Part shown: positions 2,931 through 56,030 of the stretch, piece after piece
Layout: the number at the start of each line of letters is the position of its first letter
Numbering within the stretch: position 1 is the first letter of the stretch
From: an uncultured Verrucomicrobiota bacterium
Lineage (GTDB): Bacteria; Verrucomicrobiota; Verrucomicrobiia; Chthoniobacterales; JACTMZ01
DNA: 64,000 nt
NCBI GenBank assembly: GCA_903953565.1
Contig: CAJBKE010000065.1
Location: 2,244-66,243 of the forward strand
Direction: 5' to 3'
Position numbers and translations under genes: made by a program
The notes under the pieces: generated by a model
Seen by the model: only the letters and a program-made list of their open reading frames with translations
Told to the model about the DNA's origin: nothing
The model's database searches: none

Positions 2931-3608
2931 TTACACGCGGCGGGCTTTGGGTGGACGGCAGCCGTTGTGGGGGACGGGGGTGACGTCTTTTATGACAGTG
3001 ATTTCGAGGCCGATGGCTTGGAGGGCGCGGATGGCGGATTCGCGTCCGGCACCCGGACCTTTGACGCGGACTTCGACTTCTTTGAGTCCGTGTCCCATGG
3101 CTTGGCGGGCGGCGTCCTGCGCCACGAGCTGGGCGGCGTAGGCCGTGCTTTTGCGCGAGCCTTTGAAGCCGACTTTGCCGGCACTGGAGGCACCGAGGAC
3201 GGCGCCACGTTGGTCGGTGATACTGACGATGGTGTTGTTGAACGTGGCGAGCACGTGGGCGATGCCCTGCAGGATGTTTTTGCTGCCCTTCGCTTTGACC
3301 ACTTTGGCCGGGGCGATCGGGGCGTCGAGCGAGAGCATGTCGTCGACCGGCGCCGCGGTGGCTTCGGCCGCTTTGGCTTCGCCTTCTTTTTTCTTGGCCG
3401 TTTTACCCTTGGCCGCTTTGGGCTTGGCCGCTTTTTTCTCGGCGGCGGGTTTCGCTTCGGCGGTGCCTTCGGCTTTCACTTCAGCGGCAACCTCCTCCTT
3501 GGCCTCGACCGCTTTGGTCTCGGCGGCCTCGGGGTGGTGGGCGGCAGTTTCCTCTTTGCGGCGTGCGTCCTGGGATTCGCCGAGAGTTTCTTTTTTTTCG
3601 TCGCTCAT
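2931..3608 (-). CDS. rpsK: 30S ribosomal protein S11 with long N-terminal extension
   Basis: [40 protein letters not shown]. Confidence 0.97.
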
Positions 3609-4149: not shown

Positions 4150-4368
4150 CTATTTCTTTCGGAAGGTGATGCGTCCTTTGCTCAAGTCGTATGGAGACAA
4201 CTCGAGCATGACCTTGTCACCCGGCAAAATGCGAATGAAGTGCAGGCGCATCTTGCCCGAGATGTGCGCGAGAATGCGGTGTCCGTTGGGCAATTCCACG
4301 CGGAACATCGTATTCGGCAACAACTCGACAACCTTGCCTTCTACTTCAATAGCGTCTTTTTTCGCCAT
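4150..4368 (-). CDS. infA: Translation initiation factor IF-1
   Basis: [11 protein letters not shown]...[10 protein letters not shown]...SGKMR...SPYDL. Confidence 0.98.
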
Positions 4369-5151: not shown

Positions 5152-6654
5152 CTATTTGCCGCTGGCGAGGTAAGCGGCCGTGCCACCGATGACGAGGATG
5201 CCGAGGGCCACCCAGAGCCAGACGAGCGCGTTCGAGGAAATGACGTTTCCGGCACCACCTGCGGTGCGCTCGAATCGTCCGCGGATTTTCCCGCGGCGCA
5301 AGAAGCCATCATAGTGACGCTGGAGCAGATACGTTTCCACTTGGCGCATGGTGTCGAGCGTGACGCCGACAATGATGAGCAGACCCGTGCCGCCGAAGAA
5401 CTGCGCGGTCATGTAGGGGACATTCATGCTCTCGGTGAGCATCTGCGGCAGGATGGCGATGACAGTGAGGAAGATGGCGCCGGCGAAGGTCAGGCGCGTC
5501 ATGGTGTAGTCGAGGAAATCGGCCGTCGGTTTGCCGGGACGCACGCCGGGAATGAACCCGCCGTATTTCTTGAGATCGTCGGCGATTTGCGCGGGCTGGA
5601 ATTGCGTGGCCACCCAGAAATAGCTGAAGAAGAAAATCATCGCGCCGAAGAGCGTGTAGTAGAGCCAGCCGCTGGCCAGCATGGCGGACAACTCGTTGGC
5701 CCAGCGCTGCGTGGGGAAGGCCATGCTGAGGATGGTCGAGGGGAAGAGAAGAATGGCCTGCGCAAAGATGATCGGCATGACGCCCGCGTAGTTGACCTTG
5801 AGCGGCATGTATTGCGTCTGTCCGCCGTAGACTTTGCGACCTACGACACGCTTGGCGTATTGCACGCTGATACGGCGGGTGGCTTGGGTCACGGCAATGA
5901 CCGCGGCGATGACAATGATGAGGAAAGCAATAAGGAGAACGAGGACGACCGGGCTGACCGGGGCCGCTTCGCCGCCGGACGGCACGAAGGTGCGCCAGGC
6001 TTGGATCAAACCGGCGGGCAACTGGGCGAGGATGCCGACGGTGATGATGATGGAAATGCCGTTGCCGATGCCGCGCTCGGTGATTTGGTCACCGAGCCAG
6101 ACGAGGAACATGGTTCCCGCGGTGAGCGTGATGACGGTGAGCAGACGGAAGCCGAGACCCGGATCGGAAACGAGCGGCATGCCGAGCCGGTTGATCGTGT
6201 CCATGATCCCCGGCAGGAAAGGATTCGACTCGGGGCTCTCGAAGGAGAGCGCGAGCAGATAGCCCTGGAACAAGCAGAGAATGATGGTGACGTAGCGGGT
6301 GTATTGGGAAATTTTCTGGCGTCCGCCGTCCTCACGGGAGAGGCGTCCGAGTTTCGGGATGACCGCAGTCATGAGCTGCATCATGATCGATGCGCTGATG
6401 AAAGGCATGATGCCGAGGGCAAAGATGGCGCAGTTGCCGAGCGCGCCGCCGCTGAAAAGGTTGAAGAGAGCCGCCACACCGCCGCCGGCTTGGGCGTCGG
6501 CCACATTGAGGAACCACTGGCGCAGGACTTCCGCGTTGATGCCCGGGGTCGAGATGACCGAGCCGGCACGCACGATGACGATCATGGCCAGCACGAAGAG
6601 CACGCGCTGGCGCAGTTCCGGGATTTTGAAGATGTTGGTGAAGGCGGAGATCAT
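5152..6654 (-). CDS. secY: Preprotein translocase SecY
   Basis: FALGIMPFISASI, ITERGIGNGIS, PLKVNYAGVMPIIFA, FIPGVRPG, GGTGLLIIVGV. Confidence 0.98.
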   Translation of the reverse strand: MISAFTNIFKIPELRQRVLFVLAMIVIVRAGSVISTPGINAEVLRQWFLNVADAQAGGGVAALFNLFSGGALGNCAIFALGIMPFISASIMMQLMTAVIPKLGRLSREDGGRQKISQYTRYVTIILCLFQGYLLALSFESPESNPFLPGIMDTINRLGMPLVSDPGLGFRLLTVITLTAGTMFLVWLGDQITERGIGNGISIIITVGILAQLPAGLIQAWRTFVPSGGEAAPVSPVVLVLLIAFLIIVIAAVIAVTQATRRISVQYAKRVVGRKVYGGQTQYMPLKVNYAGVMPIIFAQAILLFPSTILSMAFPTQRWANELSAMLASGWLYYTLFGAMIFFFSYFWVATQFQPAQIADDLKKYGGFIPGVRPGKPTADFLDYTMTRLTFAGAIFLTVIAILPQMLTESMNVPYMTAQFFGGTGLLIIVGVTLDTMRQVETYLLQRHYDGFLRRGKIRGRFERTAGGAGNVISSNALVWLWVALGILVIGGTAAYLASGK

Positions 6655-8644: not shown

Positions 8645-9037
8645 TTACCAAACAAAGGCGAGTAATTCGCCGCCGACTTTCTGGCGGCGCGCTTCGCGTC
8701 CGCTGAGCACGCCGCGAGGCGTGGAAATGATGGAAATGCCCATGCCGCCGAGGACGCGCGGAATTTCTTCGGCCCCGACATAACGGCGCAGGCCGGGACG
8801 GCTGACGCGCTTGAGTCCGGTGATGGCCGGGGTTTTGTCGGCGTATTTGTTGACGATGCGCAGTTGCGGTTTGCCTTCCGACTTCACTTCGAAATCGGTG
8901 ATGTAGCCTTCCTTTTTGAGGATGGCGGCGAGGTCGGCCTTGATGCGCGAGTAGGGCACGAGCAACTCGGCCTTGCGGGCGCGGCTGGCGTTGCGCAGGC
9001 GGGTGAGAAGGTCGGCGATGGGATCGTTGGAGGTCAT
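8645..9037 (-). CDS. rpsH: 30S ribosomal protein S8
   Basis: [29 protein letters not shown]. Confidence 0.98.
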
Positions 9038-9606
9038 CAGGATGCTTTGGCGGCGGGTTTGGCGCGGTCGGTGAACGGCATGCCGAGTTCGCCGAGGAGC
9101 GACTTGGCCTCCTCGTCGGTGCTGGCCGTGGTGACAATGGTCACATCGAAGCCGATGTTGCGCTTGATTTTATCGAGTTCGATCTCGGGGAAAATGCTCT
9201 GGTCGGGCACGCCGAGGGTGTAGTTGCCGTTGCCGTCGAAGGCTTTCGGGGAGATGCCCCGGAAGTCGCGGATTTTCGGCAGCGCGGTTTTGATCAGGCG
9301 CTCGAGGAATTCGTACATGATGCGTCCGCGCAGGGTGACCTTGGCGCCGATCGGTTGCTCTTTGCGTAGCTTGAAGTTCGAAATGGCCTTCTTCGATTTG
9401 GTGCGCACGGGCGTCTGGCCGGTGATGGTTTTAAGTTCGGTCACCGCTATTTCCAGCGCTTCTTTGGTGTCCGGCGACGAACCGATCGACGTGTTGATCA
9501 CGACTTTCGAGACGCGGGGGATCTGGTGCAGGTTGGTGTAGCCGTGCTTGGTCTTGAGCGCGGGCACCACCTTGGCGGTGTATTCTTTGTAGAGTTCGAC
9601 TTCCAT
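9037..9606 (-). CDS. rplE: 50S ribosomal protein L5
   Basis: [30 protein letters not shown]. Confidence 0.98.
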
Positions 9607-9609
9607 GGG

Positions 9610-9891
9610 TTACTTCGCCTTGGCCTTGGTTTTCGGCTTGGCGTCCTCCTTCTTGGCGGCTTCGACCCGCTTGACGTTGGAAATGTGGACCGGGCCCTCT
9701 TTCTGCACGATGGCACCGTTGGGGTGCTCCTGCGATTTGCGGGTGTGCTTCTTGATCATGCGCACGCCCTCGATGAGGACCTGGTTTTTGCCGCGGATGA
9801 CCTGCAGGACCTTGCCTTCGGCGCCCCGGTGGTTGCCGGTGACGACGCGGACGATGTCGTTCTTATTGACGTGGGTTTTCGCGCGACTCAT
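9610..9891 (-). CDS. rplX: 50S ribosomal protein L24
   Basis: KOW-like start, [16 protein letters not shown]. Confidence 0.96.
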
Positions 9892-10253
9892 AGGACCTCC
9901 GGAGCGAGGGAAACGATCTTCATGAAATTTTTCTCGCGCAGTTCGCGGGCCACGGGGCCGAAGATACGGGTGCCGCGCGGGTTGAGATCCTTGTCGATGA
10001 TGACAATGGCGTTGGTGTCGAAGCGCAAGGCGGAGCCGTCGGGCCGCTTGAGCGGCTGGCGGGTGCGGACGATGACGGCGCGGACGACCTCGCCTTTTTT
10101 CACCGTGCCGCCGGGGGATGCTTCTTTCACGTTGGCCGTGATGACATCGCCGACGCGGGCGAAGGCAGATTTTTTGCCGATGACGCCGATCATGGTGGCC
10201 ATGCGGGCGCCGGTGTTGTCGGCGACGTCGAGACGGGAGCGGAGCTGGATCAT
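9888..10253 (-). CDS. rplN: 50S ribosomal protein L14
   Basis: MIQ...[27 protein letters not shown]. Confidence 0.98.
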
Positions 10254-10260
10254 GGCGTGC

Positions 10261-10542
10261 TTAGTGTTTGAGGACTTCGACGAGGCGCCAGCGCTTGGTC
10301 TTGCTCAGCGGGCGGGTTTCGGTGATGCGGACTTTGTCGCCGGTCTTGGCCTCGTTCTTTTCGTCGTGGGCGTGGAATTTGGCGGTGTGCTTGACGATCT
10401 TGCCGAAGCGCGGGTGCGGAACGCGGCTGACCGTGCGGACGACGACGGTTTTGTCCATCTTGTCCGAGACGACCTCGCCCACGAGGGTTTTGCGGATCCC
10501 GCGCGATGCGGCGGGGGCGGTGGTGGTGGCGGTGTCGCTCAT
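10261..10542 (-). CDS. rpsQ: 30S ribosomal protein S17
   Basis: [25 protein letters not shown]. Confidence 0.98.
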
Positions 10543-10745
10543 GATTTGGCTGCTGCTGCTTTGATTTTCTGCGAGAGGAAGGTTTCCACCCGCGCGGCCT
10601 CGCGGCGCAGGGTGCGGATGAGGGACGGCTTTTCCAGCTGTCCGCTCTGCTGCTGCAAACGGAGGTTGAAAATTTCGTGGCGCAGCTCGCGTTTGCGGCT
10701 GCGGAGTTCATCCGCGCTGAGTTCGGCGATTTCCTTGGTCTTCAT
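10539..10745 (-). CDS. rpmC: 50S ribosomal protein L29
   Basis: EIFNLRLQ...[16 protein letters not shown]; position in the operon. Confidence 0.95.
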
Positions 10746-10749
10746 GGCG

Positions 10750-11169
10750 TCAGGAGGCGTGGTGGCGGGTGATGAATTTGGTGCGCACCGGCAATTTGTT
10801 GGCGGCGAGGCGCAGGGACTCGCGGGCCACGCTCTCGGGCACGCCGTCCAATTCGAAAAGGATGTTACCCGGGCGCACCACGGCGACCCAGTATTCCGGG
10901 GCGCCTTTGCCCTTGCCCATTCGGGTTTCCGGCGGGCGGGCGGTGACGGATTTGTCGGGGAAGATACGGATCCAGAGTTTGCCTTTGCGCTTCATGTTGC
11001 GCGTGAGGGCGACGCGGGCCGCCTCGATCTGCACGTTGGTGATCCAGGCGCGGTCGAGGGTCTGCAGACCGAATTCGCCGAAGTCGATGTTGGTGTTGCG
11101 CGAAGCGGTTCCCTTGCGGCTTCCCCGCTGGGATTTCCGGAACTTCACACGTTTGGGCATCAAGGGCAT
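10750..11169 (-). CDS. rplP: 50S ribosomal protein L16
   Basis: [23 protein letters not shown]. Confidence 0.98.
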
Positions 11170-11189
11170 GGCACGTTCTCCTCGTTAAA

Positions 11190-11903
11190 TCATTCGGCGA
11201 CTGCTGTGGCGGCCACGGCGGGCGACGGCACAACTTCGGTGGCGGGTTTGTCTTCGCGCACCGAGACTTTCGGAGCGGCTTCCTCGCCTTTGCAAATCCA
11301 GCATTTGATCCCGATCTTGCCGGCCGTGGTGTTGGCCTCGGCGAAGCCGTAATCAATCGGCGCGCGCATGGTGTGGAGCGGCACTTTGCCTTCGCGATAC
11401 TGTTCGGTGCGGGCGATTTCCGATCCGCCGAGGCGGCCGGAACAACGGACTTTGATGCCGAGCGCGCCCTGTTCCATGGCGATCTGCACGGATTTCTTCA
11501 TGGCGCGGCGGAAACCGATGCGGCGCTCGAGCTGTCCGGCTATGCTCTCGGCGACGAGTTGCGCGTCGGTCTCGGGCGAGCGGATTTCCTGGATATCGAT
11601 TTTGACCTGCTTGTCGCCGCTGATCGCGGAGACTTCTCTGGTCATGTTTTCGATTTCCGAGCCTTTGCGGCCGATGACGAGCCCCGGGCGGGCGGTGAAA
11701 ATGGTGACGCGCAGGCTGTTCCAAGCGCGCTCGATAACGATCTTCGAGACGGCCGCCTGGCGGAGTTTGCCTTTGAGGTATTCGCGGATTTTGAGGTCGG
11801 CGTGCAGGTGGTCGGCGAACTCGCGGCGCGGGGCATACCACTTCGATCCCCAGTCGCGGGAGATGGGGAGGCGGAAGCCGATCGGGTGAACTTTTTGTCC
11901 CAT
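11190..11903 (-). CDS. rpsC: 30S ribosomal protein S3
   Basis: [41 protein letters not shown]. Confidence 0.98.
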
Positions 11904-11907
11904 GGTG

Positions 11908-12387
11908 TTATTCGGCTTTCTCCGCGGCCGGCGCGGCGGCCTCGGCGGCCGGTTTGGTCTCTTCTTTTTTCACCGCGGTTTTCTTTTTGGCGGCGGGTTT
12001 TTTGGAAGCGGTCTTTTTCTTGGCGGCCCTGCGGGTCTCGCGCGTTTCGATTTCGATTTCGTCGGTCAGGATGATGCGGATGTGGCTGGTGCGCTTGCGG
12101 ATCGGGCCGGCGCTGCCACGGGCTTTCGGGATGAAACGTTGGAAGGTCGGTCCCTCGCCCACCACGGCTTCGCGCACGACGAGGGCTTCGGCGCGGGCTT
12201 GGTGGTTGTTTTCGGCATTGGCCACGGCGCTTTTCAGCGTCTTGGCCACGAGACCGGCGGCCTTCTTCGGGGTGAAGGCCAGCAGATCGAGGGCCTGCTG
12301 CACGGGCAGTCCCTGGATCTCGCGCGTCACCTCGCGCGCCTTGAACGGCGAGATGCGGGCGAATCTGTAGATCGACCTGGTTTCCAT
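11908..12387 (-). CDS. rplV: 50S ribosomal protein L22 with Lys/Ala-rich C-terminal tail
   Basis: [33 protein letters not shown]. Confidence 0.97.
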
Positions 12388-12418
12388 TTTATTAAAATTT
12401 TCTTTGTGTTTGTTGTTC

Positions 12419-13300
12419 CTAGCGGCGGGCGTCCACCCGGAGGCGGTCGCCCGTTTTTATCGAGTCCTCTTCGGACACGAGATTCTGGATGACGGCGCCG
12501 CTAATGCGGTCGCGCACGTCGATGACGCGGACTTCCCCCACGCGGCGGTTATCGCGCCACACTTGGAAAGGCATCCCGACTTTCACGCCCGCGTTGCGGC
12601 CGATGTTGGCCACGACGAGTGCGAACTCCGATTTGACTTCCACCACGGAGGCGTCGGTCAGCGTCGGTCCCGCCGCTTGCGCGTCGAGCGTGTCGGCCCC
12701 GCCGACTCCCAGCATGCGGTCGGCGGCGCGGAGTTCCATCTCGAGCGTCGCGCGGGCTTCGGCCTGCGCGGTGCGGGAGCGGGTCATGGCATCGAGCAGC
12801 GTCTTCGCCTCGGCTTGCGTCGCGGAGTCGGAAGTATTGGCGGCTTTCGTTTGCATTTCTTTTTCGAAAGCCTCGCGCTCTTCATTGTCCGCGGTTTCCA
12901 CGGTCTTGAGGAAAATTTGCACTCCCTCGGCGAGGGCGAGCAGTCGCTCGAGCAGCATGGCGTTTTCTTTCTGCTGGCGCGTGAGTTCGTTGACGGTGGA
13001 AAGGAGGCGTTCCTCGATTTCTCCGCCGCCATCGGCCCCCGGCGCGAGAGCGTCGAATTTGGCCTGCAAATCCTCGGCTTGTCGTTTGAAGGCCTCGTTC
13101 TCGCCGTTGGCGAGAGCAAGACTTTCGGTCAGGCTGCGGATGGACTCGCGCGCGAGCAAAAGTTGCTCGTTGAGGCGCGCCACTTTCGCGGCGTCCCCAG
13201 AATCCCGGTCTGTCAAAGAACTGCGGCTTTGTGCGGAGGCACTTCCCGCCAGGGTGATCAGAAGACACCCGGCCAGGAAAAACCTGCCGCTTGCGGCCAC
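12419..13300 (-). CDS. Hypothetical exported coiled-coil protein inside the S10 operon
   Basis: Signal peptide ending ASA-Q, long heptad-like helical region, ~70-aa C-terminal beta domain; fills the gap between rpsS and rplV. Confidence 0.8.
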   Translation of the reverse strand: MAASGRFFLAGCLLITLAGSASAQSRSSLTDRDSGDAAKVARLNEQLLLARESIRSLTESLALANGENEAFKRQAEDLQAKFDALAPGADGGGEIEERLLSTVNELTRQQKENAMLLERLLALAEGVQIFLKTVETADNEEREAFEKEMQTKAANTSDSATQAEAKTLLDAMTRSRTAQAEARATLEMELRAADRMLGVGGADTLDAQAAGPTLTDASVVEVKSEFALVVANIGRNAGVKVGMPFQVWRDNRRVGEVRVIDVRDRISGAVIQNLVSEEDSIKTGDRLRVDARR

Positions 13301-13302
13301 GT

Positions 13303-13581
13303 TTATTTCGTCACTTTCGCCGTATGCGATCCGTGTTTCTTGAAGATACGCGTGGGCGAGAATTCGCCGAGCTTGTGCCCGACCATGTTCTCAGTGACGA
13401 AAACTGAATTGAAAATTTTCCCGTTGTGCACGAGGAAGGTGTGCCCGACGAAGTCGGGTGTGATCATCGAACGTCGCGACCATGTTTTGATGGGTTTCTT
13501 CGCGCCGCCTTCGTTGATGCGGTCGATTTTTTCGAGCAGGTGGGCCTCGACGAACGGACCCTTTTTGAGCGATCTGGACAT
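13303..13581 (-). CDS. rpsS: 30S ribosomal protein S19
   Basis: [31 protein letters not shown]. Confidence 0.98.
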
Positions 13582-13584
13582 GGC

Positions 13585-14433
13585 TTAGTTCTTCTTCTTG
13601 CTCTTGCGGCGCTCGACGATGAAGCGGTCCGACGGTTTGTGTTTTTTGCGGGTTTTGAAACCTTTGCTCAGCTGGCCCCACGGGCTGACCGGGTGCTGGC
13701 GTCCGCCGCCGCCCTTCGATTTGCCGTTGCCGCCACCGTTCGGGTGGTCGATCGGGTTCATGACCATGCCGCGGACGGTGGGACGCACGCCGAGCCAGCG
13801 GGAACGTCCGGCTTTGCCGCTCGAGACATTCATGTGCTCGGAATTGCCGACTTGACCCATGGTGGCGTGGCATTTGCCGTTGAGTTTGCGGATTTCGCCC
13901 GAGGGCATTTTGACCAGCGCGTAGCCGGCCTCGAAGTTATTGAGCACGGCCTGCTGGCCGGCGCTGCGCGCCACTTGTCCGCCACGGCCGGGGATGAGTT
14001 CGATATTGTGGATGGCCGATCCGGGCGGGATGCGCTCGAGGGGCAGCGAATTGCCCACTTCGGGGGCGGCCGCGGGGCCGGAGGAAACTTTCATCCCGAC
14101 CTTCAAACCGTCGGGAGCGAGGATGTAAGTTTTCTCGCCGTCGGCGTATTGCAGCAAGGCGATGCGCGCGGTGCGGTTCGGGTCGTATTCGATGGCGATG
14201 ACCTCGGCGGCGATCCCGTGCTTGCGGCGTTTGAAGTCGATGAGGCGCAGCTTGCGCTTGTGTCCGCCGCCGATGTGACGGCAGGTCAGGCGGCCCTGGT
14301 TGTTGCGGCCGCCGGTGCGCTTGCGTGTGCTGACGAGGCTCTTCTCCGGCTTCTTCTTGGTGATCTCCTCGAAAGACGGGAGGGCCTTGAAGCGCGCGGA
14401 CGGCGTGAGCGGACGGAAAGTTTTGAGTGCCAT
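13585..14433 (-). CDS. rplB: 50S ribosomal protein L2
   Basis: [35 protein letters not shown]. Confidence 0.98.
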
Positions 14434-14447
14434 GGCGTGTGGTGCGG

Positions 14448-14732
14448 TTAGACGAGGTCGAGTTTTTCGCCCTCTTTGAGCGTGACGATGGCTTTCTTCC
14501 AGTGCGGACGGCGTCCGAAATCGGCGCGGCGTTCGCGCTTTTTCTTGCCGGCGTAGTTGGCCGTGTTGACCGAAACCACTTTCTTCTGGAAGAGGCTTTC
14601 CACCGCCGCCTTGATCTCGAGTTTGTTGGCCGCGGGATTGACCTCGAAGACGTATTTGTTCCCCTTGTCCGTGAGGATGGTGGACTTCTCGGTCAGGCGG
14701 ATGGTGCGGATGATGTCGAAGGGCTCTTTCAT
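14448..14732 (-). CDS. rplW: 50S ribosomal protein L23
   Basis: [23 protein letters not shown]. Confidence 0.97.
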
Positions 14733-15343
14733 GCTGCCGTCCTTTCCGAAATTTTGGCGAGGGCGTCGCCGGTCAGGAGAATTTTGTCATAGCGGAGCAG
14801 ATGCTCCGGATTCACGTCGGACGCGCTGATGAGAAGGACGTTGCCGACATTGCGCGCGGCGCGGAAGGTGGTTTCCTCGAAGGCGGGCGAAACGAGGAGG
14901 ACATTGCGCGCGTCCTTCGCATTGCTTTTCACGTAGGAAAGGAACTTCGCCGTCTTACCGTCCGGGATGGCCGGGGCTTCGACGAGGAGGACATCGCCGG
15001 CGAGAATGCGCGCGCTGAGCGCTTTGCGCAGGGCGAGTTTGCGCACCGACTTGGGTGTTTTCTTCGAGTAGTCGCGGGGCTTGGGTCCGAAGACCACGCC
15101 GCCGCCACGCCAGATCGGCGAGGATTTGTAACCGGCGCGGGCGCGGCCCGTGCCTTTCTGGCGCCAGGGTTTGGCCCCTGAGAGATTGACTTCCGCTTTG
15201 GTCTTGGTGTTGGCCGAGCCGGTGCGGCGGTTGGCGCGCAGGGCGGTGACCACATCGTGGACGGCCTGCGTGCCCTTGCCATTTTCGATGATGGCGATGT
15301 TGGCCTTCTTGGCCTCGGCGGCGGTGAGAACTTTGGCGCTCAT
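14729..15343 (-). CDS. rplD: 50S ribosomal protein L4
   Basis: [27 protein letters not shown]. Confidence 0.98.
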
Positions 15344-15346
15344 GGA

Positions 15347-15982
15347 TTACTTCTTCTTGGCAGATTTCTTTTTCGACGGGCGGACGACCACGTAGGTGCC
15401 CTTCGCGCCGGGGATGGCTCCGCTGACCAGGATGACGCCGTCTTCTTCGCGGACTTGGACCACTTGGAGATTCTGCACGGTGACGCGCTCGTCGCCCATG
15501 TGGCCGGGCATGCCCATGTTTTTCCAGACGCGGCCGGGCGTGGAGCGGTTGCCGATGGCGCCGGTGCGGCGGTGCATCATGGAACCGTGGCTGGCCGGCT
15601 GGCCTTGGTAATTGTGCTTCTTCATCGCGCCCTGGAAGCCTTTGCCTTTGGACTGTCCGATGACGTCGACGAATTGGCCGACTTCGAAAGTGGTGACCGA
15701 CAGGTCGGCGCCCGCTTCGGCCGCACCGTTGCGGAATTCGCGAATGAAACGTTTCGGCGTGGCCGAGGTTTTGGCGAAGTGTCCGGTCTGTGCTTTGGAA
15801 ACACGCGAGGGTTTCTGGTCGTCGAAGCCGACCTGCACCGCGGCATAGCCGTCGGTGTCGGCGGTCTTGACCTGCAGGACCTTGTTGCCCGCGGCGGCGA
15901 TGACCGTGACCGGCGTGGACACGCCCTTGTCGTCATAGACGCGGGTCATGCCGAGTTTTTTACCGAGTAATCCGAGGCTCAT
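15347..15982 (-). CDS. rplC: 50S ribosomal protein L3
   Basis: GKKLGMTRV, SKGKGFQG, PGRVWK..GMPGHMG. Confidence 0.98.
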   Translation of the reverse strand: MSLGLLGKKLGMTRVYDDKGVSTPVTVIAAAGNKVLQVKTADTDGYAAVQVGFDDQKPSRVSKAQTGHFAKTSATPKRFIREFRNGAAEAGADLSVTTFEVGQFVDVIGQSKGKGFQGAMKKHNYQGQPASHGSMMHRRTGAIGNRSTPGRVWKNMGMPGHMGDERVTVQNLQVVQVREEDGVILVSGAIPGAKGTYVVVRPSKKKSAKKK

Positions 15983-15990
15983 GGCGTGAA

Positions 15991-16299
15991 CTAAATTTGA
16001 ATGTTGATGTCCACCCCGGCCGGAAGGTTGAGGCGGCGGAGTTCATCCACCGTTTTGGCCGTGGGATCGATGATATCGAGGAGGCGCTTGTGCGTGCGGC
16101 GCTCGAATTGGTCCATGGACTTTTTGTCCACGTGGGGGGAGCGGTTGACCGTCCAGCGCTCGATTTTGGTCGGGAGCGGCACGGGGCCGGCGACGGCGGA
16201 ACCGCTGCGTTTGGCCGTCTCGACGATTTCGAGGACGGAGCGGTCGAGCAGCATGTGATCGAATGCTTTGAGACGGATGCGTATGCGCGGTGCGGCCAT
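15991..16299 (-). CDS. rpsJ: 30S ribosomal protein S10
   Basis: [34 protein letters not shown]; start at the ATG at 16299. Confidence 0.97.
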
Positions 16300-16304
16300 G
16301 GTCG

Positions 16305-18473
16305 TTATTTCTTTTGGCTGTCGAGAACGGCGGCAAGCACCTGCGAGGGCACTTGTTCGAAGTGGGACGGCTCCATCGAGTAGGAGGAGCGGCCTTTGGA
16401 AAGCGAGCGGATGGCGGTGGCGTAGCCGAACATTTCGGCCAGCGGCACATCGGCGGCAACGGTGCAAAGGTTGCCTTTGGTCTCGATGCCCTGAATTTTG
16501 GCGCGGCGGCGGTTGAGGTCGCCCATGATGTCGCCTTGGAATTCGTCGGGCGTGATATTTTCCACCTTCATGATGGGCTCGAGAAGGATGGCTTTGGCTT
16601 TCTTCAGCGCGTCCTTGAGCGAGAAAATCGCGGCGAGCTTGAACGCCATTTCGTTGGAATCCACGTCGTGGAACGAGCCGTCGACGATGTCGACGTTGAT
16701 ATCGATGACCGGGTAGCCGCCGATGATGCCGTTGAGCACGCCTTCCTCGATGCCCTTGATGCAGGCCGGGATGTATTCCTTCGGGATACTTCCGCCCACG
16801 ATCTTGTTCTCGACGGTGAGACCCTTGCCGCGCTCGTTGGGCTGGACCTTGATGATGACGTGGCCGTATTGACCGCGGCCGCCGGACTGCTTGATGAGTT
16901 TTCCTTCGCCGTCGGCCGGGGCGAGGATCGTTTCCTTGTAGGCGATCTGCGGTTTGCCGGCGTTCGCCTCGACCTTGAACTCGCGCATCATGCGATCGCG
17001 GATAATTTCGAGGTGCAACTCGCCCATGCCCGCGATGATCGTCTGGCCGGTTTCCTCGTGGGTGAAGACGCGGAAAGTCGGGTCTTCCTCGGCGAGGCGC
17101 TGCAGTGCGATACCCATCTTTTCCTGGTCGACTTTGGTCTTCGGCTCGATGGCCATGGAAATGACCGGCTCGGGGAAGGACGGCGGCTCGAGAAGGATCG
17201 GATGGTCTTCGTCGCAGAGCGTGTCGCCCGTGGTGATGTTCTTGATGCCGACGATGGCCGCGATGTCACCCGAATAGCACGTGTCGATGTCCTCGCGCTT
17301 GTCGGCCTGGATCTGGATGAGGCGGCTGATGCGCTCGCGTTTGCGGGTGCGCGGATTGTAGACGTTGTCGCCTTTGGAAAGTTTGCCCGAGTAGACGCGG
17401 AAGAAAACGAGTTTGCCGACGAACGGATCGCTCCAGAGCTTGAAAGCGAGCGAAGAGAAATTGCCGCTGTCATTGGCCGAGACTTCGATCGGCGTGGCGT
17501 CATCGGGGTCCTGACCGCGGACCGCCGGGATGTCCAGCGGGCTCGGGAGGTAATCGACGACGGCGTCGACGAGATACTGCACGCCCTTGTTTTTGAAAGC
17601 GGAACCGCCGGCGACGGGGACGAATTTGTTGGCGATGGTCTGGCGGCGGATGGCGGACTTGAGGTCCTGCTTGGAGATCGGTTTTTCCTCGAGGAACATC
17701 ATGCCGATTTCCTCGTCGAGATCGGTCATCTGGGTGACGAGGTCATCGTAAGCTTTGCGGGCGAGTTCCTTGTGATCCTCGGGAATTTCCGCCACCTCGT
17801 AGGTCGAGCCCATCACGTCATTGTCCGAATAAAGGACGGCCTTCTGGTTGATGACGTCGATTTGTCCGCGCAGGTTGTCCTCTTTGCCGAGCGGAATAAG
17901 GATCGGCCAGACATTGGCGCCGAGCTTGGTGCGCATGCTATCGACTGCGGCGTCGAAGTCCGCGCCGGTGCGGTCCATCTTGTTGACGAAAGCGATGCGC
18001 GGGACGTTGTATTTGGTCGCCTGGCGCCAGACGGTTTCGGACTGCGGTTGCACGCCGGCCACGCCGCAGAATACGGCGATGGCGCCGTCGAGCACACGGA
18101 GCGAACGCTCCACCTCGGCCGTGAAGTCCACGTGGCCCGGGGTGTCGATGATGTTGACGCGCTGGTTGATGTTCTCGAACAGCTTGAAGATGTCTTTCTC
18201 CGGCTTCTGCAACCAGGCACAGGTGGTGGCGGCGGAGGTGATGGTGATGCCGCGCTCGCGCTCCTGCTCCATCCAGTCGGTAACCGTCGTGCCCTCGTGC
18301 ACCTCGCCGATTTTGTGAATCATGCCGGTGTAAAAAAGGATACGCTCGGTCAGCGTGGTCTTGCCCGCGTCGATATGCGCGCAGATGCCGATATTGCGCG
18401 TGCGCTCGAGCGGGAACGCTCGGTCGGGCGAATTCGGGTTCGCGGTGGCGGGTGCGGTGGCAGTGGCGGACAT
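16305..18473 (-). CDS. fusA: Elongation factor G
   Basis: [45 protein letters not shown]. Confidence 0.99.
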
Positions 18474-18496
18474 GAGAAAGAGCGAGTTACAGCAGT

Positions 18497-18970
18497 TTAC
18501 CAGCGGAAGTGGGCGAAGGCCCGGTTGGCTTGGGCCATCTTGTGCATTTCGTCGCGTTTTTTGATGGCGTTGCCTTGGCCGGCGGCGGCGTCTTTGAGTT
18601 CGATGGCCAGCGCTTCCTTCATCGGGACGGCCTTACGTTTGGCGGCGAAGGTGACGAGCCAGCGCATGGCCAGCGCGTATTGGCGCTCGGCCGGAACTTC
18701 CATCGGAACCTGATAGGTGGCGCCGCCGACACGACGTGACTTCACCTCGAGACGCGGGCGCACATTGTCGAGAGCCTTGGTCAGCACATCGAGCGGGTCA
18801 ACCGATTCGCTGCCTTCGCGCGATTTCTCGATCGCGGTGTAGACGATGCCTTCGGCGATGGATTTTTTGCCCGCGCGCATCACGGTGTTGATCAGGCGCG
18901 TGACCATCGGGCTGCCGTAGCGGCTGTCACCGAGGGTCGTGCGTTTTGTTGCTCTGCGTCTGCGTGCCAT
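18497..18970 (-). CDS. rpsG: 30S ribosomal protein S7
   Basis: [33 protein letters not shown]. Confidence 0.98.
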
Positions 18971-18988
18971 GGTTGGAAAAGATCGGGT

Positions 18989-19390
18989 TTACTTCTTCTT
19001 GGCGGTGGCTTCAGCGCCGGCCTTCGGACGCTTGGCCCCGTATTTGGAGCGCCCGCGACGACGTCCGTCCACGCCGAGCGTGTCGAGCGAGCCGCGCACG
19101 ATATGGTAGCGCACGCCGGGCAAATCCTTCACGCGGCCGCCGCGCACGAGCACGATCGAGTGCTCCTGCAGGTTGTGGCCCTCGCCCGGAATGTAGGCGA
19201 TGACTTCTTGGCCGTTGGTCAGGCGGACCTTGGCCACTTTGCGAAGGGCGGAGTTGGGTTTCTTCGGCGTGCGGGTCATGACCTGCACGCACACGCCGCG
19301 GCGCTGCGCGCAATTGACGAGCGCGGGTCACTAGGATTTCATAGTCACTTTGCTGCGTCCTTTGCGGACAAGGTGCTAAGTCGTAGGCAT
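18989..19390 (-). pseudogene. rpsL: 30S ribosomal protein S12, reading frame interrupted by three in-frame stops near the 5' end (pseudogene or sequence error)
   Basis: From the ATG at 19390: [48 protein letters not shown]...[10 protein letters not shown]; stops at 19376-19378, 19331-19333 and 19328-19330. Confidence 0.85.
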
Positions 19391-19425
19391 TGCTAGGTGA
19401 AAGTTTCGCGCCGCTTTCAGGCGAC

Positions 19426-19449
19426 AAAAAAACCACGCGAACGTGGTTT
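19426..19449 (-). terminator. Terminator-like hairpin in the rpsL leader
   Basis: Minus strand AAACCACG-TTCG-CGTGGTTT followed by TTTT, about 35 nt upstream of the rpsL ATG. Confidence 0.5.
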
Positions 19450-19483
19450 CTTCGCGAACCCCCGACAGTGTGCGGGACGGAAG

Positions 19484-19511
19484 AGACTAGCGGAACGAAT
19501 CACTGCGGCAA
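19484..19511 (-). promoter_or_regulatory. Candidate sigma70 promoter of the str operon
   Basis: TTGCCG-16 nt-TAGTCT on the minus strand, with an A/T-rich tract upstream. Confidence 0.45.
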
Positions 19512-19651
19512 GAGATTTTCTGAAATTTTTTTCAGAAGCGCGCTTCTGGGAACGGCTGATCAGGATTTCCACGCCCGAAACTTTCGCAAAATGAGACGGT
19601 GACGGCCTGTTCGCCCGTGTGCGGATCCACGTCGCCGAGCCTTCCTTCATT

Positions 19652-19675
19652 CGTCGCCGGGGACGGCGACGCTAC
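19652..19675 (-). repeat. GTAG-type REP hairpin overlapping the aminotransferase stop codon
   Basis: Minus strand GTAG-CGTCGCCG-TCCC-CGGCGACG. Confidence 0.6.
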
Positions 19676-20862
19676 GTTAGCGCCTTGGCCAAAGCTCCTG
19701 CGACTTCGCGGATTTGGTCCGCAGTCAGCTCTGGGTAGATAGGCAGGGCCAGAGATTCGCGGGCCGCTTTTTCGGACTCGGGGAAATCGCCGGCCGAATG
19801 ACCGAGCGAAGCGAAACATTCCTGCAGGTGGAGCGGGATCGGATAATAAACGGCGCAGCCGATGCCGGCGGCGGTGAGCTTCTCGCGCACTTTGTCGCGG
19901 TCGGGCACGCGGACCACGTATTGGTGGTAGATGTGGTGGTTTTTCACGCCGGAGGCGGCGTAGGGCTCGACGGGCAAGGTGATGCGGTCGAGCAGCCCGA
20001 GCTTGGTGAATTCCTCACGGTAGAGCGCGGCATTGCGACGGCGCGCGGCATGCCAGGCGTCGAGATGGGGCAACTTGGCGGAAAGAACAACAGCCTGCAG
20101 CGCGTCGATGCGGAAATTGCCGCCGACTTTTTCGTGATGGTATTGCGCGCCCATTCCGTGGTTGCGCATGAGTTTGATTTGCGCGGCGAGGTCGGCCTCG
20201 CGGCACGTGGCCATGCCCGCGTCGCCGAAGGCGCCGAGATTTTTCGAGGGGAAGAAACTGAAATAGCTCGCCTCCCCGATCGCACCGGCGCGCAGTCTTT
20301 TGCCGCTGCTTGAAGGATAATCCGCACCGATGGCCTGCGCGGCATCTTCGATAACGGGCAAGTCGAACTCCGAGGCCAACGCTCCGATGCGGTCCATGTC
20401 GCAGACGCAGCCGAACAAATGCACGGGCATGATGGCGCGCACGCGATTGCCCGCCGCGGTGAGGAGACGTCCGTCCGGACCGGCGTGACATTTTTTCCGC
20501 AGGTATTCCCCGAGCTTCACCGGATCCATATTGTAGGTCGCGGCGTCGATATCGACGAAGACGGGTTCCGCGCCGACGCGCTGAATGCAACCCGCGGTGG
20601 CGAAAAAGGTGTAGGGCGTGGTGATGACCGCATCGCCGCGGCCGATACCCATGGCCATGAGGATGGCAAGCAGGGCATCGGTGCCGGAGGAAGCACCGAT
20701 GGCGTGTCCGCACCCGGTGTAATCGCGGACCGCCGTCTCGAGCTCCTCGACCGGCGGGCCGAGGATGAAGTGCTGACTCTCGCACAGCGCGTTCATGCGG
20801 CGCTGCACGTCGTCTTTCACCTGCGCATATTGCAGGCGCAAATCCAGCAGAGGAACCGCCAC
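19672..20862 (-). CDS. DegT/DnrJ/EryC1/StrS family sugar aminotransferase
   Basis: SSGTDAL, IEDAAQAIG, SFFPSKNLGAFGDAG, LALPIYPEL. Confidence 0.95.
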   Translation of the reverse strand: MAVPLLDLRLQYAQVKDDVQRRMNALCESQHFILGPPVEELETAVRDYTGCGHAIGASSGTDALLAILMAMGIGRGDAVITTPYTFFATAGCIQRVGAEPVFVDIDAATYNMDPVKLGEYLRKKCHAGPDGRLLTAAGNRVRAIMPVHLFGCVCDMDRIGALASEFDLPVIEDAAQAIGADYPSSSGKRLRAGAIGEASYFSFFPSKNLGAFGDAGMATCREADLAAQIKLMRNHGMGAQYHHEKVGGNFRIDALQAVVLSAKLPHLDAWHAARRRNAALYREEFTKLGLLDRITLPVEPYAASGVKNHHIYHQYVVRVPDRDKVREKLTAAGIGCAVYYPIPLHLQECFASLGHSAGDFPESEKAARESLALPIYPELTADQIREVAGALAKALT

Positions 20863-20875
20863 GAAGAAAAAAGGA

Positions 20876-21373
20876 TTAGCGGACCACGCCGAACTCGGCG
20901 CGCCGGTTGGCCGCCCAGGCCGCTTCGCCGCCGCCGGAAGCGGCTGGCATTTCCTCGCCGAAGCTGACGGTTTGGACGTGTCCGCCGCTGACGCCGAGGC
21001 CGATGAGTTTTTCCCGCACCGCCAAGGCGCGGCGTTCGCCGAGTCCGCGGTTGTATTCCTCGGTGCCGCGCTCGTCGGTGAAGCCGGCGATGATCATGTT
21101 TTGTTTCGAAGAGCGCATGAAGTCAGCCACGGCCTGCACTTTTCCCATCTCGGAACCGCTGACCTCGAAGCTGTCGAACCCGAATTGCACCGGTGAAAAT
21201 TGTCCTTTGGAAACCCCGCCCCCCAGATAAGAGGAGCCATCCGTGCGCTCGGGCAAGGGAACACCGTCGACAAAATCACCGTCCATTCCGGTGGCATAGG
21301 AATCCTTGGTTTTGCAAGAGGGCAGGAGGAAGGCCAGGCCCAGTGCAACGGCAAGGAGAAGTGGTCTTTTCAT
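20876..21373 (-). CDS. pal: Peptidoglycan-associated lipoprotein (OmpA family)
   Basis: Lipobox LPSC; G.TDERGTEEYNRGLGERRA, TVSFGEE.P, NRRAEF; directly follows tolB. Confidence 0.92.
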   Translation of the reverse strand: MKRPLLLAVALGLAFLLPSCKTKDSYATGMDGDFVDGVPLPERTDGSSYLGGGVSKGQFSPVQFGFDSFEVSGSEMGKVQAVADFMRSSKQNMIIAGFTDERGTEEYNRGLGERRALAVREKLIGLGVSGGHVQTVSFGEEMPAASGGGEAAWAANRRAEFGVVR

Positions 21374-21391: not shown

Positions 21392-22534
21392 TCAGAACGA
21401 CCAGGTGGGCTCGCTCACTTTGCCCAGCCCGCTGACGATAGTTGTGGTCCGGCCACTCTGGACGTCAAGGAGATTGAGGTTCGAACCGGAGCTGTAGATC
21501 AGATGGCGCGAATTGCGGCCCCAGACGGGATTCTGTCCGGAGGCCAGGACGCGCGCGCCACCGGCCCCGAGTTCCATCACAGCGACGGAAAAGCCCCCGC
21601 CGGAGCGGACGGTGAAAGCCACTTTCTTGCCATCAGGCGACCAACTCGGATCGGTGCAATAGCCGAAGCCGGTGGAGATCATGCTCCCCGCTCCCCCACC
21701 CGCCCCGATGCGGTAAAGCTGGGGGCTCCCGCCGTTGTCCGAGGAATAGATCAACTCGCTGCCGTTCGGCGACCAGGTCGGCGAGGATTCGACCCCGCGT
21801 GTGCGGGTCAGTCGCCGCGCCATGCCACCGCGCAGGCCGGTGATGTAGATCTCCGGGTTTCCATCCTTGCTCATGGTGAGCGCCATCTTGCCGCCATCCG
21901 GCGAAATGGCCGCACCCGAGTTGGTGCCCGGTGCCTTGACCACGCGCTGGCGCGCGCCCGAAGCCACGTCTATGACATACACATCCGGATAGCCCTCGTG
22001 GTAACCCGTATAGGCAAGGTTGCGCGCCCCGGGTCCGAGCGACGGCGCCACACTGATGCTGCGGTCGCTGGTCAGACGGCGCGAATTATTGCCGTCATAA
22101 TCCGCGAGGTAGATTTCCTTCGGCCCGCTGGCCGTGCCGACGAAGGCAATCTTCGTCGTGGCAATCCCCGGATTTCCCGTGATGGTTTCCACGATATCGT
22201 CGGCGAACTGGTGCGCCACGTCGCGGTCACTGCCGCTGTAGGTTTTGGACAAAACGGTCGCACCCGAGTTGTCGGTCACCTTTCCCTGCAAGGTCCCGCC
22301 TCCCGCCGTGCCGCCGACCGTGAAGGAGGCGCGGGCATCGGAGACGAGTTCGAACCAACCCGAAAGATCGAGGTCGTTTTGCAGGACCTTGGTCACGCCG
22401 GGGCCGGAACCTCCGCCGATCGGCGAGACCGCGAGGGAAACACGGTCGCTTTTACGCACCGTGATGGTCGGCGCGTCCTGTGCCAACGCCACGGCGGAAA
22501 TAAGGAAGAGGAAACAAAACGCTCGAATCATCAT
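21392..22534 (-). CDS. tolB: Tol-Pal beta-propeller protein TolB
   Basis: Signal peptide, NDLDLSG, IYLADYDG, PD40 repeats (SPDG, WSPNG, WSPDG). Confidence 0.9.
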   Translation of the reverse strand: MMIRAFCFLFLISAVALAQDAPTITVRKSDRVSLAVSPIGGGSGPGVTKVLQNDLDLSGWFELVSDARASFTVGGTAGGGTLQGKVTDNSGATVLSKTYSGSDRDVAHQFADDIVETITGNPGIATTKIAFVGTASGPKEIYLADYDGNNSRRLTSDRSISVAPSLGPGARNLAYTGYHEGYPDVYVIDVASGARQRVVKAPGTNSGAAISPDGGKMALTMSKDGNPEIYITGLRGGMARRLTRTRGVESSPTWSPNGSELIYSSDNGGSPQLYRIGAGGGAGSMISTGFGYCTDPSWSPDGKKVAFTVRSGGGFSVAVMELGAGGARVLASGQNPVWGRNSRHLIYSSGSNLNLLDVQSGRTTTIVSGLGKVSEPTWSF

Positions 22535-55133: not shown

Positions 55134-56030
55134 TTACTTTTTGGCCCGGGGATGGAATTGGCGGTGAGCTTTGTGCAGGCCGCGGGTGTCGACGTGGGTA
55201 TAAACCTGCGTGGTCGAAATGTCCGCGTGACCGAGCATTTCCTGGATGATGCGCAGGTCGGCCCCGCCTTGCAGCAGATGGGTGGCGAAAGAATGGCGGA
55301 GCATGTGCGGATGGACATCCTTGGAGAGCCCGGCCCGCCTAGCCAACTCGCCTAGCAGTTGCCAGATGCGCTGGTTGGTCAATTTGCGTCCGCGCACGGA
55401 GAGAAAAATCTCCCCGCCGGTTTTTTTGCCGACCAGCTCGGGACGGCCGGCTTGGAGATAACGTTGCAGCGCTTGGCGCGCGCCGGAGCCGACCGGGACC
55501 AAGCGCTGTTTGTTGCCTTTGCCGATCACGCGGATGAAACCCTGCTCGAGATCGAGATTTTCCAGCCGGGCTCCGCAGAGTTCGGAGACGCGCAGGCCGC
55601 TGGCGTAGAGCAATTCCACAATGGCCCGGTCGCGTATTTCCAGGGGAGTTTTGCCGCCGGCGGCATGGATCAGTCGGGCGACTTCCGGCTCGGAGAGCGT
55701 ATCGGGCAGGTAACGCTCGACTTTCGGCACGCCGAGGAATTCCGTCGGATCACGCTCGAGAATTTTGCGCTGCACGAGGAAACGGAAAAGAATGCGCAAG
55801 GCCACGGCATGAAGCTTGATCGTCGCCGCTGCGGCACCGCCTTTCTTCCGCCAACCGAGGAAGTCGCCGATTGCCTCGGGAGTGACCTCGGCCCACTCGG
55901 CAGCACGTTTTTGGTCCGCCGCCCACTTCGCGAAAAGCTCGAGCGAGGCACGCGTGCTCAGTTGGTAGTTGTCGGACAACCCACGCTCGGTGGCCAGATA
56001 CAGGATGAACTGGTCTGTCTCCGCGTTCAC
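55134..56030 (-). CDS. xerD: Chromosomal tyrosine recombinase
   Basis: ERGLS.N, RDRA..ELLYASGLRVSEL, GKGNKQRLVP, PHMLRHSFATHLL, LGHADISTTQVYTHV. Confidence 0.9.
   Translation of the reverse strand: MNAETDQFILYLATERGLSDNYQLSTRASLELFAKWAADQKRAAEWAEVTPEAIGDFLGWRKKGGAAAATIKLHAVALRILFRFLVQRKILERDPTEFLGVPKVERYLPDTLSEPEVARLIHAAGGKTPLEIRDRAIVELLYASGLRVSELCGARLENLDLEQGFIRVIGKGNKQRLVPVGSGARQALQRYLQAGRPELVGKKTGGEIFLSVRGRKLTNQRIWQLLGELARRAGLSKDVHPHMLRHSFATHLLQGGADLRIIQEMLGHADISTTQVYTHVDTRGLHKAHRQFHPRAKK

Follow-up and report, generated by a model that had tools for sequence, protein, structure and literature searches.

Why should a gene for a predicted exported protein lie between rpsS and rplV, one of the most conserved gene adjacencies in bacteria? 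The question is raised by a stretch of 64,000 nucleotides (nt) of an uncultured Verrucomicrobiota bacterium of the order Chthoniobacterales (GenBank assembly GCA_903953565.1, contig CAJBKE010000065.1, positions 2,244 to 66,243 of the forward strand), which is referred to as the window. Its minus strand carries the str-S10-spc-alpha ribosomal superoperon, with rpsL (18989–19294), rpsG, fusA, and rpsJ towards one end and secY, infA, rpsM, rpsK, and rpsD towards the other. Inserted in the S10 portion is a gene of 293 amino acids (aa), here called gene X. We find that X is a real gene under purifying selection that is uncharacterised, that it stands directly 5′ of rplV throughout much of the phylum as sampled, and that its product ends in a small beta-barrel of a kind also found in FlgT and TsaP. 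Feature coordinates are collected in Table 1.

The open reading frame (ORF) list and the sequence both bear out a preliminary description of this DNA, which had placed a same-strand ORF of 293 aa 2 nt past rpsS and 31 nt ahead of rplV. The end of rpsS reads AAA TAA, followed by AC and then by the GTG start of X, which accounts for the 2-nt gap. The same description had seen no terminator, promoter, or mobile-element scar, and a consensus scan, a repeat search, and an Rfam search agree. No promoter-like site was found in 11800–13700, and no minus-strand terminator-like site either, all four terminator-like sites of that region (5.2 expected in shuffles) lying on the plus strand. No repeats bracket X, as only short imperfect two-copy repeats are present, and no Rfam element was matched in 9000–20000. 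The GUG start of X falls within a small hairpin; the 120-nt fold around it is not significant in this window (z −1.65, with 13 of 200 shuffles as stable). Misassembly is excluded, because the same L2-S19-X-L22-S3 order recurs in 12 of 12 loci of the genus, which come from separate assemblies.

Among the 12 genus orthologues, the median pairwise ratio of nonsynonymous to synonymous substitution rates (dN/dS) of X is 0.141 (66 pairs). Resolved by region in the same set, it is 0.042 for the barrel, 0.171 for the coiled coil, and 0.386 for the signal peptide, and S19 gives 0.048. Since it combines purifying selection with conservation across the phylum, X is more than a chance ORF. A 394-aa ORF on the opposite, plus strand (12404–13588) covers X and rpsS entirely, and its GC content at the three codon positions follows a gene-like pattern (0.66/0.46/0.70). 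This plus-strand ORF, which naive longest-ORF calling picks in preference to X, is a shadow frame such as a GC-rich genome produces.

The family to which X belongs has no Pfam or NCBIfam model, and searches of X against both collections returned only a sub-threshold match to FlgT_C together with coiled-coil noise. A word-indexed protein search retrieved 375 homologues, and all of the 120 listed are either named “hypothetical protein” or nameless. An exhaustive profile search matched 2157 cluster representatives at an expectation value (E) ≤ 1e-3, 622 at 1e-10, and 246 at 1e-30, although the weak tail of these matches probably includes unrelated coiled coils. PF26666 is a precomputed label on two relatives of X and was not reproduced by our Pfam search. 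The insert is not described in the accessible portions of the literature on this operon and on signatures of the Planctomycetes-Verrucomicrobia-Chlamydiae superphylum (including PMC2474590 and PMC3444138), and the identifiers Amuc_0299, B2UMT5, AMUC_RS01705, and VSP_RS22560 are absent from the paper texts searched.

A search for homologues between rpsS and rplV in Verrucomicrobiota, as the preliminary description had proposed, shows that the arrangement extends across the phylum. In an order-level sample, X was matched in 34 of 41 genomes, and it lies between S19 and L22 in each of the 24 order loci fetched (12 each from the genus and from other families). Three misses within the genus are assembly gaps. 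The four order misses comprise two genomes with rpsS and rplV adjacent, a 0.9-Mb genome (G033) with a 150-nt spacer, and one (G029) with a 555-nt spacer; a hidden Markov model (HMM) search of both spacers in six frames matched no remnant of X. The 555-nt spacer, which runs from rpsS to rplV (L026:1777-2335) and has 61% GC, contains no convincing ORF.

At the level of the phylum, a profile built from the order proteins matched 97 of 301 sampled genomes (E ≤ 1e-5). The best 30 phylum loci are all syntenic, and include 22 from genomes of the genus Akkermansia as well as those of Verrucomicrobium sp. and Phragmitibacter flavus. Among 20 weaker matches, 18 have the order S19-X-L22, one has X-L22-S3 with S19 some 570 kb away, and one is a paralogue elsewhere. 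Forty genomes without a syntenic match were inspected downstream of S19, where rpsS and rplV prove to be adjacent in 25 (gaps of −1 to 137 nt). In the other 15, the S10 operon is broken exactly past rpsS and unrelated genes follow. We could locate rplV in 10 of these split genomes, eight of which have an X-like ORF as the immediate upstream neighbour of that gene. These eight ORFs encode 241–312 aa, with an anchor or signal peptide, a coiled coil, and the barrel, and are matched by the HMM at E 1.7e-15 to 2.9e-7. Because X stays beside rplV in eight of the 10, the conserved linkage is with rplV and not with rpsS. Altogether, X was found directly 5′ of rplV in 76 genomes from 31 families, separated from it by −10 to 124 nt; sampling was guided by matches, so the counts of 76 genomes with and 31 without X are not a prevalence.

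A tree of the barrel was computed from 51 of the 75 distinct sequences, near-identical rows of the genus and of Akkermansia being omitted, and with 97 columns its deep forks are weak. All families nevertheless group together in it, with three changes of kinship label where the minimum is two (mean of 24.3 in shuffles, none of 200 being as low). The copies from the eight split genomes that were checked form a single clade (support 100/96), which suggests a single ancient split of the operon. The tree as a whole fits a history of one ancient insertion, vertical inheritance thereafter, a single splitting of the operon, and several losses. The sole datum from outside the phylum is that the rpsS and rplV tags of Planctopirus limnophila are adjacent (Plim_0481 and Plim_0482, in the part of PMC12283558 available). 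The ESM-Atlas contains look-alike small proteins in clusters of Planctomycetota and Omnitrophota (scores of 0.91 and 0.80), which are leads only.

Paralogues with the same layout of N-terminal membrane segment, coiled coil, and C-terminal barrel also occur outside the ribosomal operon. In one genome of the genus Akkermansia (G081), a tandem pair follows pnp and precedes nth and exbB/exbD (L130:3934-5685). In Chthoniobacterales, single paralogues (L131:4044-4862, L132:3632-4540, and L133:4162-6047) lie beside glgC, a YacP-like NYN gene, a response regulator, and lpxD. These neighbourhoods gave no consistent functional hint.

The N-terminus of X (residues 1–23) has the basic n-region, hydrophobic h-region, and small-x-small site of a signal peptide, from which Sec-type export, with cleavage after ASA, is predicted. 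Near the N-terminus, a 12-aa hydropathy window reaching at least 1.6 is found in 72 of the 75 distinct orthologues. In an AlphaFold2 model computed from a 21-row alignment, the signal peptide is followed by helices at residues 35–85, 92–154, and 159–197 and by a barrel at residues 217–289, the latter with a predicted local distance difference test score (pLDDT) above 90. The coiled coil of the preliminary description is thus retained while its length is not, as the modelled helices total about 160 aa and not about 190 aa. Coil length varies among lineages from none to about 200 residues, and the 41-aa helical insertion at residues 139–179 is a feature of the genus that other families lack (alignment A1).

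Oligomer modelling, another of the checks first proposed, yielded a parallel, in-register homodimer joined through the helices when two copies of residues 24–293 were supplied. Its interface score (ipSAE) was 0.42, compared with 0.00 for the best control; contacts between equivalent residues (i-to-i) run through residues 36–145 and 168–197, the runs share at least 83% of contacts, and the partner pLDDT is at least 65. Of 30 solved homo-pairs, 20 attain the mark applied to ipSAE, as does 1 of 23 single chains; since our own alignment was used, this calibration is approximate. The model supports the view that the coiled coil of X would dimerise.

The C-terminal barrel, modelled alone, has a pLDDT of 90.9. 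It superposes on FlgT of the Vibrio LPHT ring (8z5n_5) with a VIA Z-score of 10.9 and a root-mean-square deviation of 2.7 over 81 aligned residues (22% identity), and Foldseek also ranks FlgT first (8z5n_0 and 3w1e; TMq 0.65–0.67). Behind FlgT come the N-terminal barrels of V1, F1, and type III ATPases (Z 7.9–9.4), HerA (Z 7.7–8.8), MreC (6zlv_A, 7eft_B, 2j5u_B, and 2qf4_A; Z 6.9–8.0), TsaP (Z 7.1 with 24% identity for 3jc8_Ta, and 5.9), Gar1 (Z 7.0), and the barrels of translation factors (Z 5.6–5.7). When a profile of the barrel was compared with PDB sequences, TsaP was the sole sequence-level match (E 8.9e-4). On the basis of these models, we assign the barrel, with its six superposable strands, to the structural class of FlgT-C-like beta-rolls. 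Searched whole, X matches Pfam FlgT_C at residues 229–251 with E 0.0022 and 18.8 bits, against a cut-off of 27.

The resemblance to the FlgT C-terminus that had been noticed from the letters is therefore real in structure, though below the Pfam cut-off in score, and the motifs quoted for it (VVANIGRNAGVKVGMPFQVWR, GEVRVIDV, and IKTGDRL) are present in the X translation. The further proposal of an exported, envelope-type protein is likewise supported, given the hydrophobic N-termini, the top structural match to FlgT, and the homodimer model. X proteins range from 114 to 340 aa, and the short forms of 114–123 aa (families f18, which is Opitutales, f19, and f28) consist of a signal peptide and the barrel only, which makes the barrel the conserved core of the family.

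FlgT, whose C-terminal domain (PF16538; 3w1e and 8z5n) belongs to the Vibrio H-ring, is like X in having a signal peptide and in being periplasmic, a location that for X is predicted. FlgT-C is in contact with the P ring (FlgI) and with MotY in the LPHT ring, according to the part of PMC13626733 consulted. FlgT_C is the only Pfam family that recurs for X. The two proteins otherwise differ, since X lacks FlgT-N and FlgT-M and has a helical coiled coil in its N-terminal 200 residues instead, its barrel is a bare beta-roll of about 75 aa where the FlgT match spans chain residues 160–377, and its genomic context is ribosomal rather than flagellar. FlgI (PF02119) was not found in the genome of the window, although controls were positive in three genomes; that genome is 95.7% complete, so the absence is no proof. 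With a FlgT_C score below the gathering threshold, neither FlgT-N nor FlgT-M, and no FlgI found, X was rejected as a member of FlgT.

TsaP, the ring protein associated with the secretin of type IV pili (3jc8 and 6ve2), is closest to X in sequence. Its FlgT-C-like domains form a heptameric belt on the PilQ secretin, as reported in the section consulted of a preprint (bioRxiv 10.1101/2020.05.29.123786), and the genome of the window has four secretin genes. X has one barrel where TsaP has two in tandem, and a coiled coil where TsaP has a disordered linker; a LysM domain was not matched on X by Pfam at E ≤ 1. Lacking LysM and having a single barrel, X was not accepted as a TsaP either.

MreC shares the layout of X: a membrane segment at the N-terminus, a coiled coil that dimerises, in X by prediction, and a barrel of related fold at the C-terminus. 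Where MreC has beta-barrel domains, X has just one small barrel; it was set aside as an MreC because it has no match to Pfam MreC (PF04085) and because the genome has its genuine MreC at another locus (G000:C58:42276-42725, E 9.4e-36). Lpp and CpoB also consist of a signal peptide followed by a periplasmic, oligomeric coiled coil. The lipobox and C-terminal Lys of Lpp and the tetratricopeptide repeat domain of CpoB are absent from X, and Pfam and NCBIfam scans gave no sequence relation to either protein, though no search was aimed at them.

In its genomic position, X resembles the non-ribosomal cistrons that accompany ribosomal-protein genes, such as adk, map, and rpoA generally, and secY (5152–6654) and infA (4150–4368) in its own superoperon. 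It shares with them the strand of the operon, narrow gaps (2 and 31 nt), the lack of a minus-strand terminator of its own, and a stable position, in this case in 76 genomes. These other passengers occur almost universally and have known functions, whereas X belongs to one phylum as far as searched and occupies the rpsS-rplV junction.

Parts of X are covered by contigs from RNA libraries (four metatranscriptome runs, each of a different study); one of these contigs, 560 nt long (12152–12711), bridges X and rplV. No listed RNA contig crosses the rpsS-X junction with 31 nt on both sides. The codon adaptation of X to the ribosomal-protein set is 0.548, where ribosomal proteins average 0.70 (minimum 0.547) and 22 other genes average 0.52; this value and the GTG start point to an output that is moderate and not ribosome-like.

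Published data for two relatives add to this picture. For Akkermansia muciniphila, sense-strand, gene-wise read counts analysed with DESeq2 are given in supplementary table 2 of PMC6538878, of which the relevant part was available. From mucin(+) to mucin(−), Amuc_0298 (L22) rises from 32.5 to 369 (11.4-fold), Amuc_0300 (S19) from 32.4 to 241 (7.4-fold), and Amuc_0299, the presumptive X gene between them (“Uncharacterized protein”, B2UMT5), from 98 to 196 (2.0-fold, adjusted p-value 5e-7). The ten ribosomal-protein genes flanking Amuc_0299 change in the same direction by 7.4- to 41-fold. Amuc_0299 is thus transcribed yet partly uncoupled from its neighbours. The earlier proposal that X is expressed in step with ribosome synthesis is therefore supported only in part: the operon strand, the tiny gaps, and the contig joining X to rplV are in its favour, whereas the GTG start, the codon adaptation, and the 2.0-fold response of Amuc_0299 speak against strict coupling. 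In Verrucomicrobium spinosum, the tag between rplV (VSP_RS22555) and rpsS (VSP_RS22565) is VSP_RS22560, which transposon-directed insertion site sequencing (TraDIS) calls essential; its insertion index is 0.00127, where rpsS has 0.0108 and rplV 0.0154 (the part of PMC12283558 cited above). As 0.00127 corresponds to 1/785, VSP_RS22560 would have about 261 codons.

The reading we prefer, at a probability of roughly 55% for the whole, is that X acts in the envelope as a periplasmic scaffold, adaptor, or spacer and that its barrel attaches it to some other assembly there. Passage of X across the inner membrane would rely on a Sec-type signal peptide or, in certain lineages, on an N-terminal anchor that stays uncleaved, and the helical region would zip two chains into a parallel coiled coil of lineage-dependent length. 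The conserved C-terminal barrel of about 75 residues would then be the working end, most likely docking on a partner in an envelope assembly because barrels of the same kind dock FlgT and TsaP on periplasmic rings. X may have settled just 5′ of rplV early in the history of the phylum, with vertical inheritance from then on; hence it would be transcribed from the ribosomal-protein operon, or head the rplV half where the operon is split, but its translation and regulation would be weaker than those of the genes around it. A bolder form of this proposal, which we consider rather unlikely, takes the TraDIS call for VSP_RS22560 to be free of polar artefact and makes X a truly essential, phylum-specific envelope protein whose barrel docks on a periplasmic machine of Verrucomicrobiota and which is locked to rplV since its supply must track the output of the second half of the operon. 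X would in that case be a device that couples the envelope to growth, directly testable in A. muciniphila through Amuc_0299.

Several points weigh against a function in the envelope. The fold alone names neither the periplasm nor a partner, because cytoplasmic ATPases, HerA, and Gar1 share the barrel at Z 7–9.4. FlgT_C stays below threshold in every member tested, with 6 of 25 diverse barrels matching it at E ≤ 0.1 and the best isolated domain reaching 22.7 bits against 27. The signal-peptide calls come from a hydropathy heuristic, so that localisation is predicted from sequence, and the dimer score falls exactly at the mark, coiled coils being easy for such models. None of ATG, GTG, and TTG is available to start the signal-peptide-like stretch in family f2 (two genomes, G025 and G040); at the loci L014:1817-1910 and L024:1725-1800, WRLIAGFLIFCLAPAAA and then QNRSSLTN follow directly past the rpsS stop. 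The X frame of f2 is +1 relative to rpsS and offers only ATC, CTG, or ATT before the mature N-terminus, which suggests that a non-canonical start, re-initiation, or recoding at the rpsS stop is used there. X is also dispensable in many lineages, as shown by its absence from 31 of the genomes examined. The RNA-library contigs neither prove a single transcript nor exclude carry-over of DNA, and polarity on rplV and genes further downstream may account for the essential call of VSP_RS22560. VSP_RS22560 and Amuc_0299 are moreover taken as X orthologues from tag order, the synteny of related genomes, and, for VSP_RS22560, the length implied by its index, and not from their sequences.

Other explanations can be offered. 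As a special case of the envelope reading, X could be an abundant periplasmic coiled coil that, like Lpp, links the outer membrane to the cell wall or keeps the two at a distance, its barrel binding one or the other and its lineage-specific coil length setting the width of the periplasm. Predicted export, a coil modelled as parallel with a length of 0 to about 200 aa, and the location in a highly expressed operon would all suit such a strut, and one relative carries the automatic Joint Genome Institute (JGI) name “outer membrane murein-binding lipoprotein Lpp”, which is likely a coiled-coil artefact. We nonetheless judge it unlikely: the LAGC at residues 9–12 is unconserved and too near the N-terminus for a lipobox, the C-terminal residue varies (R, Q, K, N, F, or S) with no conserved Lys, and the short forms have no coil at all. 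Ordinary codon adaptation and a GTG start are likewise unfit for a very abundant protein, and the model tested is a dimer rather than a trimer. An improbable alternative would place the barrel on the other side of the membrane, making X an anchored, cytoplasm-facing factor that binds RNA or a ribosomal component. This would explain why the linkage to rplV outlasts the loss of rpsS, and it can appeal to the likeness to Gar1 and translation-factor barrels, to the paralogues that neighbour pnp in a genome of Akkermansia and a YacP-like NYN gene in two genomes of Chthoniobacterales, and to some deep-branching forms with Arg on both flanks of the hydrophobic segment. Most orthologues, however, have the short basic N-terminus, hydrophobic core, and small-x-small site of a cleaved Sec substrate, the barrel is not notably basic, and FlgT and TsaP, the best match in structure and the only ones in sequence, are periplasmic proteins.

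The constant position of X could also mean that the gene acts in cis. SecM, MifM, and VemP are secretion-monitoring leaders that tune the genes downstream of them, and translation and export of X might similarly tune the ribosomal genes from rplV onwards. X does lie directly 5′ of rplV in all syntenic cases, even as the first gene of its unit, and the order of a predicted exported protein followed by genes for exit-tunnel proteins would be apt. We regard this as quite improbable, given a strongly conserved folded domain (dN/dS of 0.042 in the barrel), paralogues elsewhere without rplV, and 25 genomes in which rpsS and rplV are adjacent without X. A conserved C-terminal arrest-like motif was not seen beyond the residues of the fold, and neither the RNA structure at the start nor the Rfam search favours a leader. 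Still less would be required of X if it were a neutral passenger, an ancient chance insertion with no important role as a protein that was kept since its deletion endangers the essential genes around it. Loss in many lineages, ordinary codon usage, and the fact that a function is known for no member agree with such a history. It is very improbable all the same: the barrel is under purifying selection as strong as that on S19, the domain architecture is kept across 31 families, and the TraDIS index is very low. Clean losses, which leave −1 to 137 nt between rpsS and rplV, show how easily X is removed, so that its retention elsewhere implies use.

Non-ribosomal cistrons in ribosomal operons are already known; what is new here is a phylum-wide, predicted exported, and unannotated family at the rpsS-rplV junction that follows rplV. 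A stable non-ribosomal passenger occupies this adjacency across the phylum and tracks rplV when the operon breaks. By tag order, X is also present in A. muciniphila, a much-studied gut bacterium for which genetic tools exist. If X is a real component of the envelope, it would offer a handle on the poorly known envelope of Verrucomicrobiota and a natural case for the coordination of envelope and ribosome synthesis. The gene order is in addition a candidate marker both for the phylum and for the clade with the split operon.

Table 1. Gene X, its parts and its neighbours in the window, and the loci of genomes with a split S10 operon.
Feature	Position	Strand	Basis or remark
rpsS (ribosomal protein S19), 92 aa	13303..13581	−	ORF list; Pfam Ribosomal_S19, E 7.5e-37
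Gene X, 293 aa, predicted exported coiled-coil and beta-barrel protein	12419..13300	−	GTG start; TAG stop at 12419-12421
X residues 1-23, signal-peptide-like N-terminus	13232..13300	−	Sequence; MAASGR / FFLAGCLLITLAG / SASA, then Q
X residues 35-197, helical coiled-coil region	12710..13198	−	AlphaFold2 helices and dimer model
X residues 139-179, 41-aa helical insertion	12764..12886	−	Alignment A1, columns 242-282; three genus rows only
X residues 216-293, six-stranded beta-barrel of FlgT-C / ATPase-N-terminal type	12422..12655	−	AlphaFold2 domain model; structure and sequence comparison
X-rplV spacer, 31 nt, A/T-rich	12388..12418	−	Sequence; bridged by one RNA-library contig
rplV (ribosomal protein L22), 159 aa, Lys/Ala-rich C-terminal tail	11908..12387	−	Pfam Ribosomal_L22, E 4.7e-37, residues 8-108
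Split-operon loci			L087-L089, L094-L096, L099-L101, L103, L104, L106, L107, L112, L118

Further from X, the window contains a gene for a tyrosine recombinase of XerC/D-like type (Phage_integrase and SAM-like N-terminal domain; 55134–56249, minus strand) and a fused SecDF gene (57359–59677, plus strand), neither with an evident tie to X. Other ORFs of the superoperon are longer than their domains. The S11 domain begins at residue 115 of a 225-aa ORF (2931–3608, minus strand) and the S10 domain at residue 63 of a 158-aa ORF (15991–16467, minus strand); these N-terminal extensions may reflect upstream start codons chosen by the mechanical ORF call. In L22, the Lys/Ala-rich tail accounts for about 50 aa. 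Directly upstream of rpsL, on the minus strand, follow a DegT-type aminotransferase gene (19672–20862), a gene for an OmpA-family, Pal-like protein with a signal peptide (20876–21373), and one for a TolB-like protein with PD40 repeats (21392–22534). With the latter two, Tol-Pal-like envelope genes abut the ribosomal superoperon.

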